Assembly (NCBI GenBank): GCA_033551855.1
Contig: JAWSUI010000009.1
Location: 1-64,000 of the forward strand
Direction of reading: 5' to 3'
DNA: 64,000 nucleotides
DNA from: Deferrisomatales bacterium
GTDB taxonomy: Bacteria > Desulfobacterota > Deferrisomatia > Deferrisomatales > JACRMM01
Position numbers and translations under genes: made by a program. Below, in pieces: positions 3,907 through 12,487 of this stretch (its first letter is position 1; each line of letters opens with the position of its first letter). The notes under the pieces are model-generated. The model ran no database searches and was not told the DNA's origin. It was given only the letters and a program-made list of their open reading frames with translations.

Positions 3907-5538
3907 ATGGCTCGTCGCAAACGCGGTGGCGCCTGCCTGGCTGTCTTCGCCGTCCTGGGCATCCTGTCTCTCGCCCGAGCACAGGTCCCCGGAGAGCCTC
4001 CGCCTGCCCAGGGAACCCGCCTGCGTTTCGAACGGGCGCTCTCCGTCCAGAGCACCGAGGTGGGGACGGTTTTCGTCGAGACGCACACCGTTGCGCCGGG
4101 GGAGGACCTGTGGGAGATCCTCTCCCGCGGGCACGGGGCAACGGAGGAAGACCTGCCGGGTCTGCTCGAGGCGTTCCGCGCCGTGAACCCGAGCGCCGAC
4201 CCGCGCCGGTTGGTTCCCGGCCAGGTGATCCGCGTCCCCGTCCGGGTGGACGGAGGGCCCAGACCTCCCCCCCCGGAGTCGCCCGCCTCGACCTACACGG
4301 TCGAGGCGGGCGACAGCCTGTGGCGGATCCTGCGGACCCGGCTGCAGGTCCCCCAGGAGCGGATGCAGGACGCTTTGCAGGCGGTAGCGAGGGCCAATCC
4401 CCAGATCCGCAACCTCGACCGGATCTACGTGGGGCAGAAGATCGTCCTTCCGACCTTGGCGGAGGCCCCCCCCGGGAGGCTCCCCCCCCGCGCCGTGCTG
4501 CCCGCTTCGTACCGCACCTCTCTGCAACTCCTCCAGGACTTAGGCTGCGAGGTGGTTTCCGCCGGGGAGACCTTTCTGCCCTTGGGAGGGGGACAGACCC
4601 TTCGGCTCGACGCCTCGGACTTCCCCCTCGTTGTCGGCCCCTCGGGCAGCAAGGTGATCCTCGATCCCCGGGGCCGGCTGAGCGCCGCGCTGGCCCGGGC
4701 GGCGCGCGAGGAGTGGGGCTACCACTGCGTGGCCGGGGTAGATGCCGACCCGGAAGCGTACCTGGGCGCCATCCTGCCTCACCTGGGGTTCTTCGAGCTC
4801 ACGGAGGGGGAGCGCTCGATCTCCCTCGGCGGCGGCACCGAGCTCGTCGCCCTCGCCCGCTGGACCGTGGTGCCCACGCCCGAGGATCTCTGGGCGGGAA
4901 ATGCACACCTGCTCTTCCCGCCGGGCTCGGCACTGGATCCCCGGCTCGTGCAGGCTGCGCTTCGGGCAGGCTTCGCCTCCCACCCCCTCGGCCCCGTGCT
5001 GACCGCCACCCCCACCCCTGCCTGGGCCGGCACCGGCCTCGCCGTGCTTCCCATGTCCGACCCGGCCGAAGGGGCGGCCCGCCTGCTCTCGCTGCTGGGC
5101 GTTTCTCACAGAGTCCGGCCGGTGGTGGAGTGGCGACTCGAGGGGGGCGTCACGTACCGGATCTCTCCCCTCCTGACCCTGCGCTTCGGCGGCCTGGAGT
5201 ACGCGGTACCCCCTGCCGCACCCGCCCGCGCAGAGCAGGTCCTCACCCGGGCCGGATACTTCACCATTCCCTGGCCCTCGGGGGCGACTCCCCTGAACGT
5301 GCTCGGGGACCTCCTGGCACTGCTCGGAACCCCCCACGACCGGGCCACGGTGGACGTTCCGCCGGGGCAGGCCCTGCGTCTGCGGGTCTCGGGAATCCTG
5401 CTCGAGGAAAGCCGCCTGGCGGCAGTGCTCTACCCGGACCTGCCGGGGGGCCGGCTCCTGCTCACGGAGGGGAACCCGCCTGCGGCGGCCGCCGAGATCC
5501 TCCTGGAACAGGGATTCCTGCCCTGGCTCGTCCGCTGA
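3907..5538 (+). CDS. Exported LysM peptidoglycan-binding protein (two LysM domains)
   Basis: Signal peptide; [13 protein letters not shown]...[10 protein letters not shown] and [13 protein letters not shown]...[10 protein letters not shown]. Confidence 0.85.
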
Positions 5539-5548
5539 GGAGTTTGTC

Positions 5549-6043
5549 GTGGTCCCAACCCTCCGATCGAAGATCCTTGCGGTTCCCTCCCTGCTCGAGG
5601 CCCTGGAGCCCCGGCGCCGGGCGGGAGAGCGGCTGGTCTTCACCAACGGGTGTTTCGACATCCTACACCCGGGACACGTGACGTATCTCGAGGCCGCCCG
5701 AGACCTGGGCGACCTCCTGGTGGTGGGCCTCAACTCCGACGAGAGCGTCCGCCGCCTCAAAGGCGCCAGCCGCCCCCTCCTCCCCCAAGACGACCGTGCC
5801 ACCGTGCTCGCGGGGTTGCGCAGCGTGGATTTCGTGGTGACCTTCGAGGAGGACACCCCGCTGCGCCTCATTCAGGAGCTCGTGCCGGACGTGCTCGTCA
5901 AGGGAGGGGACTGGCCGGTGGAGGGGATCGTGGGAAGGGAGGTCGTGGAAGCCGCGGGAGGCCGCGTGGTGACGATCCCCTTCCTGGAGGGACGGTCGAC
6001 GACCGGGATCGTGGAACGGGTGCTGGAGCGGTGTCGGCCGTAG
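5549..6043 (+). CDS. rfaE2: D-glycero-beta-D-manno-heptose 1-phosphate adenylyltransferase
   Basis: [42 protein letters not shown]. Confidence 0.95.
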
Positions 6044-6066
6044 GGACACGACGCCCCAGCGCCCTC

Positions 6067-7608
6067 TTACCTGCCTTGCTCCGGCTGCCGCCCCTCGCGG
6101 TCACACCGAACGGCCTCGTAGGCTTGCGGGAAGGCGAAGGGCTCCTCCTCCCCGTGGAACCCGCGGTGACAGGCCCGGCAGGACGCCTCGGCGGGCTGTC
6201 GGACCATCACGCCCTCTCCCCGGTGCCGCCCACCGGGCCCGTGGCACGCCTCGCACCCCACCACCGGCTCCAGGCTCGGCCCCGTCGCCCGCTGGAGCGA
6301 GGTGGAGTGACACGCCAGGCACTCGGGGTTCCGGGAATCGCCCTTGAGCGCCGCGTAGGCTCGCGCGTGGGGCGTGCGGGCCCACGCCCGGTACGCCTCC
6401 GCGTGACACGAGCGACACGAAGCCGAACCCGCGTGGAGCACCGCCTGGGCAGGATAGGCGGTGCGGTCACCCGGGGCGGCGGCCGGCGCGATCGGTGCCG
6501 GGGGAGGGCTCGCGACCTGCCGCCGGCGCCACTCCTGCTCCTGGCTCTTGTATTCCTGCACCCACGCGAGGACCTCCGGCACCTCCCCCCCCCGGGCCTC
6601 CAAGGGGGCCACCCGGTGGCGAAAGACCGCAGGTGCCCCCCTCAGGGCCGCCAGGGCCTCCTCCGCGCGGGCGATCCGCTCCTCCAGAGGCAGCACGGTT
6701 CCCGTGAGGGGCCGCTCCCCTTGGGGCCCCTCACGGAGCTCCCCGCGCAGGATGTCGAGCCGCGCGCCGAGGACGTCCTCCTCGGCGAGATTCCGTGGCG
6801 CCCGCCAAGAGTGGAGAGCCTCGGCCGGAACATCCAGCACGCCCAGGTACTGCCCCCGATTGGACGCGTGAAGCAAGACGGCGTGGCCCTCCACCGGGGG
6901 TACCGGCAGGTATTCGGCCGGTCCGCCTCCCACGACGAAGGCCAGCTCGGGAAACTCTCGGGCGAGGGCCTGTTCGGCCGTCCGCCCCAGGTTGGAAAGG
7001 CAAAGGACGGCCGCCGCCTCGGACAGGTGGGGCAAGACCTCCCGCAGGGCCTCCGCCGGCGGGTCGACCCGCACGCCCAGCTGGCCGTCCCATGCGGGGT
7101 TGGGCGCGAGAAACCCGACCACGGCCACGGAAGCTCCTCCCCAGCGGACCAGCCGCCACCGGGGAAAAGGGTGCTCCCCATCGGCGGACCGCAGGTTGGT
7201 GGCCACCCACGGGACACCGGGGTTTGCCTCCAACTCCTGCAAGAACGCCAGCCCCGCGGCCAGGTCGCGCCGTCCCACGTTCACGGCGGCGACCCCGTCC
7301 GCAAGCGCCGCCCGGGCGAGCAGGCGGGCCCGATCCCTCAGAAGCTGGGCATGGGGCTGCCCCGTCACCAGGATCTGGGCGAAGAGCAGATCCCCTGCGT
7401 CCACGTACAGGAGCGCCGGCCGTTCCTGCCTCAGTCGCTCCAGCTCAGCCGCTCTTCGGGCCAGACCCCCGAACCGGCCGGAGCCTCACCCGCAGGGTTC
7501 GATCTCCGCTAGGACACTGGAGGAGTACACCAATCGGTGCCCCAGCTCCCGGGCCTCCCCCGGCCAGGCCGCGGCCAACAAAAACCCCAACAAAACCAGT
7601 GGCTTCAC
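6067..7608 (-). CDS. Exported UshA/5'-nucleotidase-fold selenoprotein (CGU, Sec at codon 41) with C-terminal tetraheme cytochrome c domain
   Basis: GTG at 7608 after an AAGGAG RBS; signal peptide; EIEPCG-TGA(7486-7488)-GSGRFGGLARRA continues in frame into VDAGDL; four CxxCH motifs (CRSCH, CLACH, CEACH, CRACH). Confidence 0.85.
7451..7485 (-). promoter_or_regulatory. Putative bacterial SECIS hairpin
   Basis: Right after the UGA: lower stem gctc/gagc, upper stem ggccgg/ctggcc, G-rich apical region. Confidence 0.6.
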
Positions 7609-9512
7609 CGTTTCTCCTTTCGCCCGAAGAGGGCCCCCAGGACGCTCCCCTTCCGCTCCTGCCGCATCCGCAAGAGGCGCAGCTCCCGCAGGGCCTGCAC
7701 GTGGTTCGGATCCCTGGCCAGCGCGGCCTCGAGGTGGGTCCGGGCGGCCTCCAGATCCCCTTGGAGTGCCCGAAGGTGCCCGAGACGGAAAGACGGCTCG
7801 GCCGACGCCCCGAGCAGCCCCCGGGCCCGAAGCAGGAGCTCCTCCGCCTCGGGCAGGACGTTCTCCCGTCCCGCCGCCGCCTGGTGCAGACGAGCAATCC
7901 CCAAGTGGAGGGCGTACTCTCCCTCTTCCGGATTGGCCTCCCATGCCCGGCGCAGCGCCTCGGCCGCGTCGTCCCAGGCCCGTCGACGCAGAAGAAGGCG
8001 CCCCTCTTGGAAGCAGGCCTCCGCCTCGAGAACCCTGGCGCCGCCCGCCACCTCCTCTTCGAGCCCCTCCTGCAGGAACTTGAGGTACTCCCGGCGCCGC
8101 ACTTCGGCTTTCAGGGCCTCGTACGCCGCCTGGACCAGGTGGAAGATCTCCGCGTGGATCTGCCGGAGCTCGGGCGGGTCGCTGGGAGCCAGCATGTCGG
8201 GGTGGACGTCCTTGGCCCGGGTCAAGTAGCTCTCGCGCACCTTCTCGTCGCTTGCGGTGAGGGGAACCTCCAGGACCTGGAAGTAGTTGCGGGACCGGAG
8301 GGCCTCTAGCCGGTGCCGCGCCCGGCGCACGCGCTCCATGTCCGCGGGGTCGAGCCTCCAGGCGGGGCGTTCCCCGGCCCCGCGAGAGAGGGTCAGGTAG
8401 CCCCGCAGGAGGAGGTAGTAGAGGAACCGCACCTCCGCCTCGCCCTTGAGCTCGCCGAGCACGTCTCCCAGCTTCTTGCCCCGCAGCCGGCGGAGAACCC
8501 GGAGGAGGTGCAGGTCCTCCCCCCCCAGGGGGACCTCCGACGCCACCCCGAAGAGCTCCGCCGCGGGCAGGAGGTGCAGTGCCACTTGGGGCCGCAGCGT
8601 AGAGGTCACGCGCTCGAAAGGCAGGTGCGAACGAACCCCGTCCCAGAGCAGCCTGTGGCCCTCCAAGGGTCTCCCCGGAATCCGGGCCGGAGGCTCCTGG
8701 TGGGGCGAGAGACGAAAGTCCCCTCCCTGCCAGGTGAAGATGTCGAGCACCTTTCGGGCGACATGGTCCCGCACGGCTTCGACGAGGCTCTCGGGGTCGA
8801 TGAGCCCGCGGGCGACCAAAAACTCCCCCAGCTTCCGCTTGGTCCGCAGCATCGCATCGATACCTTCCCGGTACGCCGCTTCGCCGACCGCCCCCCTGTC
8901 GAGCAGGTAGCGCCCCAGGGTCTCACGCATCTGGTTGGACAGGGCGAACGTGATCTCCCCGTCCTGGAGGAAGACGACCTTCTTGGCCCGTCCCCACTGC
9001 ACGTTGAGGCACCCGGTGGCCTTGTGAAACGCCAGGTCCTGGAGCAACACGGGGAAATCCACGGCCGCGAGGCTGCCCCGGGTGAGGATCTCGGTGGGAG
9101 AGAAGGGGGTGACCGCCCCCGGCAGCGAGGCGGGAGCGTCCTCGGCAAGCAGCGCGCGCAACCTCTCTCTCAGGGAGTGCGCCGTGAGCGGTTTCTTCAG
9201 GAAGTCGAGGGCGCCGAGCCCCCCCACCGCCTCGGTGCGGATGTCGGTGTCCCGATGCACCGCACCCATGACGAATGCGGGCACCTCCTTGCCCCCTCGG
9301 GCCTCCCGGATCCGGCGCAGGAGAGCCAATCCACCCTTCTTCGGGAGGAGCACCTCGATGAACAGCAGGTCGGGGCCGACTTCCAAGAACCGATGGAACC
9401 CCTCGTCGTCCTGGGAGGCGGTGTGCAGCTCTGCGCCGAGCCCCTCGAGCAGCTCCCCCAGGACGACCCCGGTGCCTGGATCCTGGTCCACGATCAAGAC
9501 GCGCTTCTTCAT
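7605..9512 (-). CDS. Receiver-like + DUF4388-like + DnaJ (J-domain) + TPR protein
   Basis: MKKRVLIVDQD receiver start with FLKKP; NYFQVLEV...AKDVHPD J-domain; C-terminal TPR-like helices; ATGA overlap with the glnE stop. Confidence 0.85.
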   Translation of the reverse strand: MKKRVLIVDQDPGTGVVLGELLEGLGAELHTASQDDEGFHRFLEVGPDLLFIEVLLPKKGGLALLRRIREARGGKEVPAFVMGAVHRDTDIRTEAVGGLGALDFLKKPLTAHSLRERLRALLAEDAPASLPGAVTPFSPTEILTRGSLAAVDFPVLLQDLAFHKATGCLNVQWGRAKKVVFLQDGEITFALSNQMRETLGRYLLDRGAVGEAAYREGIDAMLRTKRKLGEFLVARGLIDPESLVEAVRDHVARKVLDIFTWQGGDFRLSPHQEPPARIPGRPLEGHRLLWDGVRSHLPFERVTSTLRPQVALHLLPAAELFGVASEVPLGGEDLHLLRVLRRLRGKKLGDVLGELKGEAEVRFLYYLLLRGYLTLSRGAGERPAWRLDPADMERVRRARHRLEALRSRNYFQVLEVPLTASDEKVRESYLTRAKDVHPDMLAPSDPPELRQIHAEIFHLVQAAYEALKAEVRRREYLKFLQEGLEEEVAGGARVLEAEACFQEGRLLLRRRAWDDAAEALRRAWEANPEEGEYALHLGIARLHQAAAGRENVLPEAEELLLRARGLLGASAEPSFRLGHLRALQGDLEAARTHLEAALARDPNHVQALRELRLLRMRQERKGSVLGALFGRKEKR

Positions 9513-12487
9513 CCGCCGACTCCCCCGAGAAGGGCCTCGTAGGCCGTCCGCACGCGCCGCCTCTGGCGGTCCACGTCGCCCTGGAGCGCCGTCGGGTCTT
9601 CCTCGGGGCGTCCCAGCCCACGGGCGAGCTCTCGGAGGCGCTCGGGCTCCCCGGGCAGGACGTCGGTAGGCCGCTCCTGGAGGATGCGCAGCCGTGCCTC
9701 CACTCGGCGCAGGAAGCGATAGCCCTCGGCCAGGGCCCGCCCCTCGCCGTCGGGCACCAGGCGCCGCCGCCGCAGGGCACCCAGGGCAGCCAGGGTGTTG
9801 GGGCTGCGAACATCCGGGTAGCTCCACCCGTGAAGGAGCTGCAGCGCCTGCACGGCAAACTCCACGTCCAGAATCCCGCCGCTGCCGGCCTTCAGGTCCA
9901 CCCGGCCGTCGCTCCCGCGCCGAGCCTCCGCCTCGAGCCGATCCCGCATCCCCCGGATCTCAGGCCGCGGATCCGAGGCCGGGGGAGCCCCGTAGAGCAC
10001 CCGGTCCACCACCTCACGGGCCTGGCGGCCCAGCCCCGGGTCCCCCGCCACGGGGCGCAGGCGGATCAGGGCCTGCCTTTCCCAGGTGAGGCCCCCCCCG
10101 CCCCGATGATACGCCTCGAAGGCTTCCAGCGACGTCACGAGGGGCCCGGCCTGCCCAGAAGGGCGAAGCCTGGCATCCATCCGGAACGCGATGCCTTCCC
10201 GGGTGCGCGTGGCCAAGGCGCCGATGAGCCTCTGGGCCAAGCGCGCAAAGAAGTCCGAGGCGGACAGACCCGCCCGGGGAGACTCGGCTGGGCCATCGGG
10301 CGGCTGATAGACGAAGAGGACGTCGAGGTCCGAGTGGTAGTCGATCTCCCCGCCCCCGAGCTTCCCCAGACCCAAGACGGCGAAGCGTGCCTCCGACCCC
10401 GCCGCCCCCTCGGGCGGCCCGTACTTGCGAACGAGCCGCGCCATGGCGTCCCGACAGGCCTGCTCCAGACAGACCTCCGCCACGCGGGTGAGCTGCGCTC
10501 CGGTCTCCTCGGGTTCGAGGCCGCCCGCGAAGTCCTGCAGGGCGATGCGAAGGAATTCGGCGTTGCGGAACCTGCGCAGCGCGTCCAGGCGCTCCTCGTC
10601 GTCGCGGGTCCGGCCCACCGCCTCGGAGAGCTCGGCGGCAAGCTGCCCGCCGGACTTCTCACGCACCGCGTGGCTGCCCAGGACCAACTCGTCCAGCAGC
10701 TCCGGATGCCCCACCAGGTACCGGGAGAGAAAATCGCTGGTCCCGAAAAGGGTGAGCAGGAGCTTCGCCGTCGCCGGATTTTCCTCGAGAAGGGCAAGGT
10801 ATCCCTCGCGCGCCCCCGATCCCGACAGAAACTCCCCCAAGCGCAGGAGAGCCCGGTCCGGGTCGGGGCACTGGCAGGCAGCGTTCAGGAGGAAGGGCGC
10901 CACCCGGGTCAAGACCCGGCGCGCTCGGGGGGTGGGGCGGCCTCGGGGGGGGCCGTGTCTGAGCAGCGCGAACCCCTCCAGGGCCCGGACCGGGTCTCGA
11001 AAGCCCGCGCGAGCCAAGGCCGTGTGGGCGGCTGGGTCTTCCGGCGCGAGAGCGAGGAGCCCCCGGGCCTCTGCCACCCCCCGCTCCTCCTCCCACTCCC
11101 GGGACGCCCCCTGGGCAAGCCGTCCGTAGTACCCGTGAACCTCGGACCGGACCCGGTCCAGGGCCGCAAGAAACGGCCCGGTGGGGGATGGTCCGCCGTA
11201 CCCCATGCGGCGCGCCACGACCTCGAGCTCCTCGCGGTCGGCCGGCAGCCGGTGGGTGCGGCGCAGGTGAAGGGACTGCACGGCGTGCTCCAGGGTCCGA
11301 AGGAACCGGTAACACCGTGAGAGGTCTTGTGCCGCGGCCGCCTCGACGACCCCCGCGGCGGCCAGCTTTCGCAAAGCCTCGAGTGTGTTTCGCTCGCGGA
11401 CCTCGGGCAGGCGCCCACCGTGGATGAGCTGCAGGGTCTGCACGAAGAACTCGACCTCTCGGATGCCCCCCGTTCCGAGCTTGAGGTCCCCCGGCCCTCC
11501 CAAACGCCGGGCCGAGTGTCCCTCGATCCGGCGCTTCATGTCGACGATGTCCTCCACCGTCGTGTAGTCCAGGCTGCGCCTGTACACGAAGGGCTCCACC
11601 TGTGCGAGGAAGCACTCTCCCAGCCCCCGGTCGCCCGCAATCGGGCGGGCCCGCATCAGCGCTGCCCGCTCCCACGTCTGACCCCAGGACTGGTAGTAGA
11701 ACACGGCGTTCTCGAGGGGCTGGGCCAGCTCGCCGTTTCGGCCTTCCGGCCTGAGGTCGAGATCGACGCGAAAGACCAGGCCGTCCTCCGTCACACGTCC
11801 CAGGGCATCGGCGGCCAGGCTCACCAGCCGAGGGAAGAAGTCGCCCGGGCTCGTCGATCCCCGGGGCCCTCCCGAGGTGCGGCCCCGCCCGGTCCGGTAC
11901 AGCACCAGCAGATCCACGTCGGAAGAGAGGTTCAGCTCGCTGCCGCCGAGCTTGCCCATGCCCAGGACGCAGGCCCGGTTCGGCTCGCCGTCTTCCCCCA
12001 GGGGCTCGCCGTGCCGGGCGACCAGGTGCCCCCATGCCCAAGACAGGGCCGCCTCCACCGCCGCCTCTGCCAGGGCGCTCACCTCCCGGGCCGTCACCTC
12101 CACCGGCGCCAGGGCCAGGGCCTCGCGGGAGACGATGCGCAGGAGCTCCCTGCGCCCCACGCTGCGCAGGCGGCGGAGGAAGTCTTCCGGCTCTTCCGGT
12201 GGTCCAGGGCGAGCGGCAAGCTCGGAGGCGTACTCTTCCCGGGTCCGTTCCCGCGAGATCCCGGGCTCCGCCAGCACGCAAACCAGTCCGGGCTCCCGGC
12301 ACAACCATGCCCCCGCAATCCGGGAGGAACCCGCCACCCGCCCCAGGCGGGCCACGCCGACAGGGCCGAGCCCCTCGGGAAGCCCTGCCTCCCCGAGCAG
12401 GCGCGCCAGCACCGGTTCCGCCCACTTCGGGCTCGGCGCCTCCGTCAGTGCCTCTCGGACACCTCTTCTCCCCGCGCTTGCGCTCAC
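9509..12487 (-). CDS. glnE: Bifunctional glutamine synthetase adenylyltransferase/adenylyl-removing enzyme
   Basis: Two nucleotidyltransferase domains (GMGKLGGSELNLSSDVDL; GLGKLGGGEIDYHSDLD), RVDLDLRPEG, KLGTGGIREVEF; start uncertain. Confidence 0.95.
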   Translation of the reverse strand: MSASAGRRGVREALTEAPSPKWAEPVLARLLGEAGLPEGLGPVGVARLGRVAGSSRIAGAWLCREPGLVCVLAEPGISRERTREEYASELAARPGPPEEPEDFLRRLRSVGRRELLRIVSREALALAPVEVTAREVSALAEAAVEAALSWAWGHLVARHGEPLGEDGEPNRACVLGMGKLGGSELNLSSDVDLLVLYRTGRGRTSGGPRGSTSPGDFFPRLVSLAADALGRVTEDGLVFRVDLDLRPEGRNGELAQPLENAVFYYQSWGQTWERAALMRARPIAGDRGLGECFLAQVEPFVYRRSLDYTTVEDIVDMKRRIEGHSARRLGGPGDLKLGTGGIREVEFFVQTLQLIHGGRLPEVRERNTLEALRKLAAAGVVEAAAAQDLSRCYRFLRTLEHAVQSLHLRRTHRLPADREELEVVARRMGYGGPSPTGPFLAALDRVRSEVHGYYGRLAQGASREWEEERGVAEARGLLALAPEDPAAHTALARAGFRDPVRALEGFALLRHGPPRGRPTPRARRVLTRVAPFLLNAACQCPDPDRALLRLGEFLSGSGAREGYLALLEENPATAKLLLTLFGTSDFLSRYLVGHPELLDELVLGSHAVREKSGGQLAAELSEAVGRTRDDEERLDALRRFRNAEFLRIALQDFAGGLEPEETGAQLTRVAEVCLEQACRDAMARLVRKYGPPEGAAGSEARFAVLGLGKLGGGEIDYHSDLDVLFVYQPPDGPAESPRAGLSASDFFARLAQRLIGALATRTREGIAFRMDARLRPSGQAGPLVTSLEAFEAYHRGGGGLTWERQALIRLRPVAGDPGLGRQAREVVDRVLYGAPPASDPRPEIRGMRDRLEAEARRGSDGRVDLKAGSGGILDVEFAVQALQLLHGWSYPDVRSPNTLAALGALRRRRLVPDGEGRALAEGYRFLRRVEARLRILQERPTDVLPGEPERLRELARGLGRPEEDPTALQGDVDRQRRRVRTAYEALLGGVGG

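Follow-up and report, generated by a model that had tools for sequence, protein, structure and literature searches.

In the 64,000 nucleotides of contig JAWSUI010000009.1 that we analysed from a Deferrisomatales bacterium (assembly GCA_033551855.1, positions 1 to 64,000; this whole stretch is called the window below), the minus strand carries a frame of 513 codons, 7608..6067, broken by a single TGA at codon 41 (7488-7486). We conclude that this is one gene and not two, and that its in-frame UGA is probably decoded as selenocysteine (Sec), yielding a predicted exported UshA-like selenoprotein of 513 residues with a CxU motif. Judged from its sequence, the gene combines the features by which a selenoprotein gene is usually recognised computationally–conservation around the TGA, cysteine (Cys) forms of the protein, the Sec machinery of the genome, and a hairpin of the selenocysteine insertion sequence (SECIS) type. 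It is a new member, in a distinct and under-recognised clade, of a family that is catalogued but uncharacterised, and not a new type. An original prediction, made without database searches, had proposed a hidden selenoprotein in which an exported UshA-fold protein is fused to a tetraheme cytochrome c. Its coordinates and its description of the gene–one frame, a single TGA, a ribosome-binding site, a GTG start and an EIEPCG-U motif–are correct on the sequence and the translation.

Conservation of the TGA codon and family membership

The list of open reading frames (ORFs) for the window cuts the frame in two (7486..7944 and 6067..7404). Read through, the TGA has the context EIEPCG-U-GSGRFGGLARRA, in which E-P-C-G-TGA (codons 37-41) supplies the P-C-G-U motif required by the family described below. 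The GTG start shares bases with the TGA that ends the upstream gene (GTGA), and AGGAG or GGAG is also found ahead of the starts of orthologues. A hydrophobic N-terminus, judged by eye, is common to this protein and all the full-length orthologues examined, in agreement with the signal peptide that had been proposed, which is predicted only. Attachment of c-type heme requires export, and the translation contains the four C-terminal CxxCH motifs originally reported (at C398, C430, C452 and C477).

The sole strong NCBIfam match of the protein is NF041198, 'UshA_like_PCGU', an UshA-like (seleno)protein family (E = 2.6e-80, residues 25-485, in a single stretch); its 519-position profile is matched over 25-512, the full-length architecture. 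Because this profile already includes the heme-binding C-terminus, the UshA-like/tetraheme fusion is how members of this family are normally built. Four CxxCH motifs occur in 31 of 31 aligned members and in 146 of the 150 best cluster representatives, the remaining 4 having three (our family search covered 1.84 billion cluster representatives, and all counts of representatives refer to these best 150). The novelty that the original prediction attached to the fusion was therefore overstated, and its assignment of the protein to a described bacterial selenoprotein type holds on both the NF041198 match and the literature tables. 'UshA-like, COG0737, CxU' is listed as a selenoprotein family, with 76 Sec and 92 Cys sequences, in the table of a 2008 ocean metagenome survey (PMC2398784), and the family appears in the tables of a 2022 review (PMC9312934) and of a 2026 review that names NF041198 (PMC13188914). 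Both features by which this literature describes such proteins are found here: homology to UshA / 5'-nucleotidase, from the Foldseek and profile matches given below, and a CxU motif whose in-frame UGA lines up with Cys in homologues. No functional study of the family was found in the literature searched (subscription-only papers and supplements fall outside this scope), where the accessible text names it only in tables and in one discussion sentence. For a selenoprotein specialist, the gene itself is no surprise.

The TGA is conserved throughout the order. Every one of its 21 genomes searched has a match, and a TGA lies inside each match that covers the N-terminus. All 28 sequences extracted from relatives have the TGA after C-G (or C-x) at the same motif, with the protein conserved on both sides. 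The complete ORFs (23 of 23) each contain exactly one TGA and four CxxCH motifs, and each opens with a ribosome-binding site ahead of an N-terminus that resembles a signal peptide. Across the 31-sequence alignment, position 41 is invariantly Cys or Sec, and C39 and G40 are invariant. Cys also occupies the Sec site in 7 more distant database homologues. The check that had been proposed for homologues, Cys or Sec at the TGA position with conservation on both sides, thus came out in favour of the selenoprotein. In a maximum-likelihood tree of the 31 sequences, this gene and 12 orthologues form one clade (group A; support 100/100), and the other two Sec clades, groups B and C, separate at 98/95.

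Among the best 150 representatives, 84 have C-x-C at the site, 1 has W-G-R, and 65 start downstream of it, 27 of these exactly at xGGL. The family is thus widespread, with 84 Cys forms and 65 apparently Sec-truncated forms in this sample alone. Two further points concern individual representatives (P0184, P0046, P0053 and P0071): the one with W-G-R has it where others have C-G-C or C-G-U, and three, about 1,190-1,207 residues long, carry C-E-C or C-D-C and align with the profile in three or four stretches, which may mark them as duplicated or fused forms.

Automated annotation had been expected to truncate the protein, and this is borne out by its 29 closest database proteins (40-99% identity), all of which begin after the Sec codon; the few that are named are a 'hypothetical protein' or a 'multiheme c-type cytochrome' of Deferrisomatales or Deltaproteobacteria. 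Records cut in this way lose the signal peptide and the likely active-site motif. They might also be read at face value, with the TGA as a real stop between an upstream ORF of 40 codons and a separate cytochrome of 445 residues starting from the GTG at 7404. The ORF list yields just those two pieces and the 29 database proteins are annotated in the short form, but the short form is without the signal peptide that a c-type cytochrome needs, protein conservation crosses the TGA in every one of the 28 relatives, and the Cys forms are continuous proteins. Moreover, the truncated entries vary widely in where they start, with the 27 at xGGL among them, which is how gene callers behave after an unread Sec codon. 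When the Sec machinery and SECIS-type hairpin described below are added, we regard a real stop as very improbable.

We consider a sequencing error or a recent nonsense mutation that broke the gene, which the original prediction had named as grounds for its own refutation, to be extremely improbable. Apart from the stop itself, nothing further speaks for it, and the same TGA is present in all the relatives, which span four families of the order, and in both paralogues of the gene in its own genome. A separately assembled public contig (word depth 28.7) also spans the gene and keeps the TGA, differing by two substitutions and one 3-nucleotide (nt) deletion, none of them at 7486-7488. As this contig may share its sample with the present assembly or derive from a related one, it excludes only an assembly slip.

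Selenocysteine machinery and the SECIS-type hairpin

Genome-wide searches found the Sec machinery that the original prediction had called for: a tRNA-Sec (70.9 bits, anticodon TCA) together with selB (307 bits), selA (573 bits) and selD (367 bits), all above their family cut-offs. The selD gene has an in-frame TGA of its own (contig C50:3310-4233, locus L026), and a formate dehydrogenase alpha-type gene, FdhA (contig C5:61220-64975, locus L064), has one within its match, in the context DHCARL-TGA-HSATVAGL. The genome also contains two paralogues of the gene in the window, both scoring above the NF041198 cut-off: one on contig C8:54806-56203 (locus L002:913-2310, minus strand; EISPCG*LKNPRGGLAKRA, 355.9 bits) and one on contig C80:7850-9232 (locus L056:1468-2850, plus strand; TVGICG*AQNPLGGLAKKA, 324.7 bits). 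Both keep C-G-TGA at the same place as this gene. With FdhA, selD and the three UshA-like genes, the genome has at least five likely selenoprotein genes. For relatives of the gene, the search of the order's genomes was far more productive than a related-locus search of genome contigs, which gave 3 loci, 1 of them close. A crude scan of the genome for TGA followed by 18 nt and GGTC with a stem returned 59 matches, compared with 5 each when TAA or TAG was used, and these are mostly noise; from a reading of the flanking peptides, the only matches that look gene-like on both sides of the TGA are FdhA and the three UshA-like genes.

In the SECIS analysis, nt positions are counted from the U of the UGA. 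The bacterial SECIS model, as summarised in the 2026 review, has a loop of 3-9 nt with a G in the first two loop positions, a stem of 4-16 base pairs (bp), a UGA-to-loop distance of 16-37 nt, and an energy no higher than -7.5 kcal/mol (PMC13188914). A hairpin at nt 16-34, starting 12 nt after the UGA, falls within all four published constraints: it has a 6-bp stem, a 7-nt loop that begins with GG, a spacing of 18 nt and an energy of -8.8 kcal/mol, and it is contained in a 45-nt minimum-energy fold of -19.6 kcal/mol. The original prediction had pointed to a different hairpin, GGCCGG/CUGGCC (7479-7474 and 7464-7459, nt 10-15/25-30), which starts 6 nt after the UGA. That hairpin does exist where it was placed, but it is probably not a functional SECIS. 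It fails two of the constraints, because its loop begins with UU (no G at its first or second position) and its spacing is only 12 nt, whereas the overlapping hairpin at nt 16-34 fits. On a reading of the alignment, its register pairs 3 of 6 positions in the two paralogous groups.

Related Sec sites use the register of the nt 16-34 hairpin. Its equivalent in the paralogous clades (stem nt 16-21 with 28-33) is the sole fit there, with 86.4% paired, and as no pair in groups B and C is changed to another standard pair, these groups show no covariation. The FdhA Sec site, our in-genome control, has a perfect 6-bp stem from nt 16-21 with a loop GGUCU at nt 22-26, and all 29 of the 29 aligned sequences keep this GGUCU unchanged at nt 22-26. 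In the SECIS of E. coli fdhF, a GGUC loop likewise lies equally far from the UGA. In the gene itself the third-position GC content (GC3) is 0.86, and the clade nonetheless keeps GGU CUN, CGA and AGA at synonymous sites: all 16 of 16 sequences have GGT, all 16 of 16 have AGA, and 14 of 16 have CGA. Retention of these A/T-ending codons suggests that the RNA is constrained in addition to the GGLARR peptide. In the window these codons lie at 7455-7467, where the second Gly is GGT and the Arg-Arg after GGLA is CGA AGA, and they form the loop and 3' arm of the predicted SECIS. A lower stem is poorly conserved: in the clade, pairing in a nearby register (nt 9-12 with 37-40) reaches only 65%.

Several observations weigh against our interpretation of the gene, or against parts of it. 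Within the clade, the hairpin originally proposed does as well as the alternative: nt 10-15/25-30 has 90.0% of cells paired with 2 compensatory cells, nt 16-21/29-34 has 91.1% with 1 compensatory cell, and pair counts do not separate them. Covariation in the alternative is weak, as 94 of 500 shuffles reach its covariation score with that one compensatory pair, and 19 of 500 reach its percentage paired. The conserved RNA overlaps the conserved GGLARR peptide, so conservation of the nucleotides is partly explained by the protein. The 81-nt fold around the UGA is unremarkable (z-score -1.0; 29 of 200 shuffles fold as well), and an Rfam scan of 5500-8500 with E values up to 10 gave four chance-level matches and no SECIS family. 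As to the family, the NF041198 score of the protein is 270.5 bits (260.6 bits in a six-frame search), which is slightly below the curated equivalog cut-off of 275. Scores in group A range from 242.5 to 288.6 bits and only 2 of its 13 members reach the cut-off; groups B and C score 324-356 bits and all 7 members tested reach it. A lower NF041198 cut-off, or a clade-specific model, would probably repair many records. Finally, the neighbouring genes, one with response-regulator, DUF4388, DnaJ and TPR domains and the other for a cytidylyltransferase, give no functional hint.

Table 1. Features of the predicted selenoprotein gene, with their positions in the window.
Feature	Position	Strand	Basis
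Complete selenoprotein gene: 513 codons plus TAA stop (6067-6069), one TGA read through	6067..7608	minus	Sequence; NF041198 match; full-length orthologues across the order
Shine-Dalgarno-like AGGAG, 5 nt ahead of the GTG start (7606-7608)	7614..7618	minus	Read from the sequence
Predicted signal peptide, residues 1-19, VKPLVLLGFLLAAAWPGEA; cleavage site inferred	7552..7608	minus	Hydrophobic N-terminus, by eye
Cys39-Gly40-Sec41 (TGC GGG TGA); TGA 7486-7488 is the predicted Sec codon	7486..7494	minus	Conservation; Cys in homologues
Predicted SECIS upper stem-loop, UUCGGG / loop GGUCUGG / CCCGAA, nt 16-34	7455..7473	minus	Published constraints; fold energy; conservation
Possible extended SECIS with lower stem nt 9-14 with 38-43, poorly conserved	7446..7480	minus	Local minimum-energy fold
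UshA / 5'-nucleotidase-like metallophosphoesterase-fold domain, about residues 24-335; helical insert about 262-325	6604..7539	minus	AlphaFold2; Foldseek; profile
Pro/Ala-rich linker, residues 367-391, predicted disordered	6436..6510	minus	pLDDT (predicted local distance difference test) below 50 at 375-391; length varies among orthologues
Tetraheme cytochrome c554-like domain, residues 392-505; CxxCH at 6403-6417, 6307-6321, 6241-6255 and 6166-6180	6094..6435	minus	Pfam; profile

Domain architecture and possible function

An AlphaFold2 model built on the 31-sequence alignment has a mean pLDDT of 84.1 and a predicted template modelling score of 0.70; its N-terminal domain is confident and its heme domain moderate, as expected for a model without hemes. 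The top Foldseek matches are E. coli UshA (1oie and 2ush; E = 2e-18, about 279 columns), with other 5'-nucleotidases and SoxB next, and a profile search of solved structures matched the 5'-nucleotidase 2z1a (E = 8e-30, profile positions 6-244). The UshA-like fold that had been recognised from the sequence is therefore supported by both kinds of match. In the alignment with 2z1a, GRRD stands at GNHE, SN at SH and GGPA at GHSH, much as the original prediction had it; its one misreading was at DxH, which aligns with S31-V32-L33 and not with 'SSV'. Of the dimetal motifs conserved in active metallophosphoesterases (DxH, GDxxD, GNHE, H and GHxH), only one, the DAGD aspartate motif, is kept, and a Pfam scan of the protein gave neither a Metallophos nor a 5_nucleotid_C match. 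The residues of the N-terminal domain that are invariant in the 31 sequences are C39, G40, U/C41, G47, G48, G72, D115 and G252.

The C-terminal part matches the Pfam family Cytochrome_C554 (PF13435; E = 3.7e-9, 37.8 bits compared with a threshold of 20.8), and in the solved-structure search positions 378-486 matched both 1bvb, cytochrome c554, and the heme-bearing portion of OcwA (6i5b). The four CxxCH motifs, H414 and H462 are invariant in the heme domain of the 31 sequences. Because H414 and H462 are the only invariant histidines outside the CxxCH motifs, at least one heme has no conserved sixth His ligand from the heme domain. Separately, all 13 members of the clade have a fifth cysteine, not part of the heme motifs, near the C-terminus, C505 in this protein (VRCDR, residues 501-505, window 6094-6108; 'R-C-D/P/N'), which the paralogous clades do not.

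These features are consistent with a non-hydrolytic redox function in the periplasm, as had been proposed: loss of the metal ligands and possession of a heme domain both fit such a role, which we infer from the sequence. In the mechanism we envisage, Sec41 would be inserted by SelB, bound to the hairpin at nt 16-34; the protein would leave the cytoplasm by the Sec export pathway and receive its four hemes in the periplasm. Cys39 and Sec41, separated by a Gly, are predicted to lie in the loop that follows the first beta-strand, the site of metal binding in UshA. As a pair they would alternate between a selenenylsulfide and a selenol/thiol, with the four-heme chain passing electrons between them and the periplasmic cytochrome pool. 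Such an exchange would make the protein an oxidoreductase rather than a hydrolase. For its substrate we can offer only a guess, which we hold tentatively and expect to be wrong more often than right, of a species with a sulfur-sulfur bond such as polysulfide, thiosulfate or tetrathionate; we propose it because the fold is shared with SoxB and because the C8 paralogue lies beside respiratory cytochrome genes, both of which are weak arguments.

The protein might instead have remained a hydrolase, SoxB-like or phosphoesterase-like, with Sec41 as the nucleophile that attacks an ester of the sulfate, thiosulfonate or phosphate type, while the hemes would do no more than sense or regulate. Its fold is that of UshA and SoxB, D115 and the aspartate of DAGD are kept, and there are weak matches to SoxB (28.8 bits for this protein and 75.2 bits for a group C paralogue), although both are far below the 550-bit cut-off. 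Metallophosphoesterases of this kind usually have seven dimetal ligands. This protein has other residues at the positions of six of the seven by alignment, it lacks the C-terminal domain with which UshA binds nucleotides, a four-heme chain is costly for a role that is not redox, and the profile is nearer to 5'-nucleotidases (107 bits) than to SoxB (80 bits). We therefore think that hydrolysis is improbable.

It is similarly improbable, in our estimate, that Sec41 (or Cys39) ligates one heme iron or sits directly on it, making a heme-selenolate catalytic centre in place of a free redox pair. The shortage of invariant histidines, two outside the CxxCH motifs for four hemes, would suit this arrangement, for which the His/Cys hemes of SoxAX and TsdA offer a comparison. 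Cytochrome c554 itself has one five-coordinate heme, which also speaks for it. On the other side, the structure model contains no hemes, the two domains are joined by a Pro/Ala linker for which disorder is predicted, and C-x-U spacing is typical of the selenenylsulfide pairs of other families, as listed in the reviews.

Our most speculative proposal, which we judge unlikely, is that these proteins are a new kind of periplasmic enzyme, in which a demetallated phosphoesterase scaffold carries a selenolate directly on or next to a five-coordinate c-type heme, giving a heme-selenium catalytic centre, and performs sulfur or selenium chemistry such as the turnover of polysulfide, thiosulfate or selenite. 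The clade of this gene would then be a third, separately specialised isoenzyme whose Sec codon is kept in all genomes of the order in which the N-terminal part can be read. Setting this proposal aside, the family deserves a first biochemical study for its combination of an UshA fold that has lost its metal ligands, a Cys/Sec pair and four hemes.

Clades, gene neighbourhood and comparison with known systems

Within group A, the main split (six f2 rows and the rest) follows the families to which the relatives belong. Paralogues from both of the other clades are found in many genomes of the order, with up to three paralogous clades per genome. At one locus in another genome (L051; G017 contig C10:43564-47298), a group B and a group C paralogue adjoin on opposite strands, each with its TGA.

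The order of genes around the selenoprotein gene is conserved among relatives. The gene upstream of it (window 7605-9827, minus strand) encodes 740 residues with response-regulator receiver, DUF4388, DnaJ and TPR domains, and is a neighbour in 12 loci of the order. The cytidylyltransferase gene downstream, which is convergent, is a neighbour in 14 loci. The C8 paralogue has different surroundings: it adjoins a gene whose 625-residue product combines multiheme cytochrome c domains with those of the cytochrome b561 type, and which we take to be CbcL-like, and the product of its second neighbour is a multiheme cytochrome of 743 residues that has NapC/NirT and MtrC-like domains (the two neighbours are L062:1910-4141 and L062:6657-8534). 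This neighbourhood suggests a link to respiratory electron transfer.

Compared with the NF041198 family as a whole, the protein has the same P-C-G-U motif after the first strand, the same UshA-like N-terminal and four-heme C-terminal domains, and the same occurrence of Sec and Cys forms. Its clade differs in having a helical insert of about 60 residues and an Arg in place of the Asn at the GNHE position. NF049981, 'UshA-like (seleno)protein family 2', likewise has Sec near the N-terminus, but it matches only weakly (residues 25-77, 40.8 bits against a cut-off of 140). That family has CxxU spacing in the table of the 2026 review (PMC13188914), and its 262-position profile contains no heme domain.

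UshA and the 5'-nucleotidases (1ush, 2ush, 1oie and 2z1a) share the fold of the N-terminal metallophosphoesterase domain with the protein. It differs from them in that its metal motifs are replaced, the nucleotide-binding C-terminal domain is missing, and C-G-U and four hemes are added. The SoxB thiosulfohydrolase (2wdc and 4uwq; TIGR04486) has the same superfamily fold and works in the periplasm, where its target is a cysteine-bound sulfur compound. SoxB is a hydrolase with a dimanganese site and without hemes, and this protein matches its model only at the low score given above. On the heme side, cytochrome c554 of Nitrosomonas (1bvb) and the c554-like module of OcwA (6i5b) have the same four-heme module with the motifs in the same order, but they are stand-alone electron carriers or terminal reductases, with neither an UshA-like domain nor Sec.

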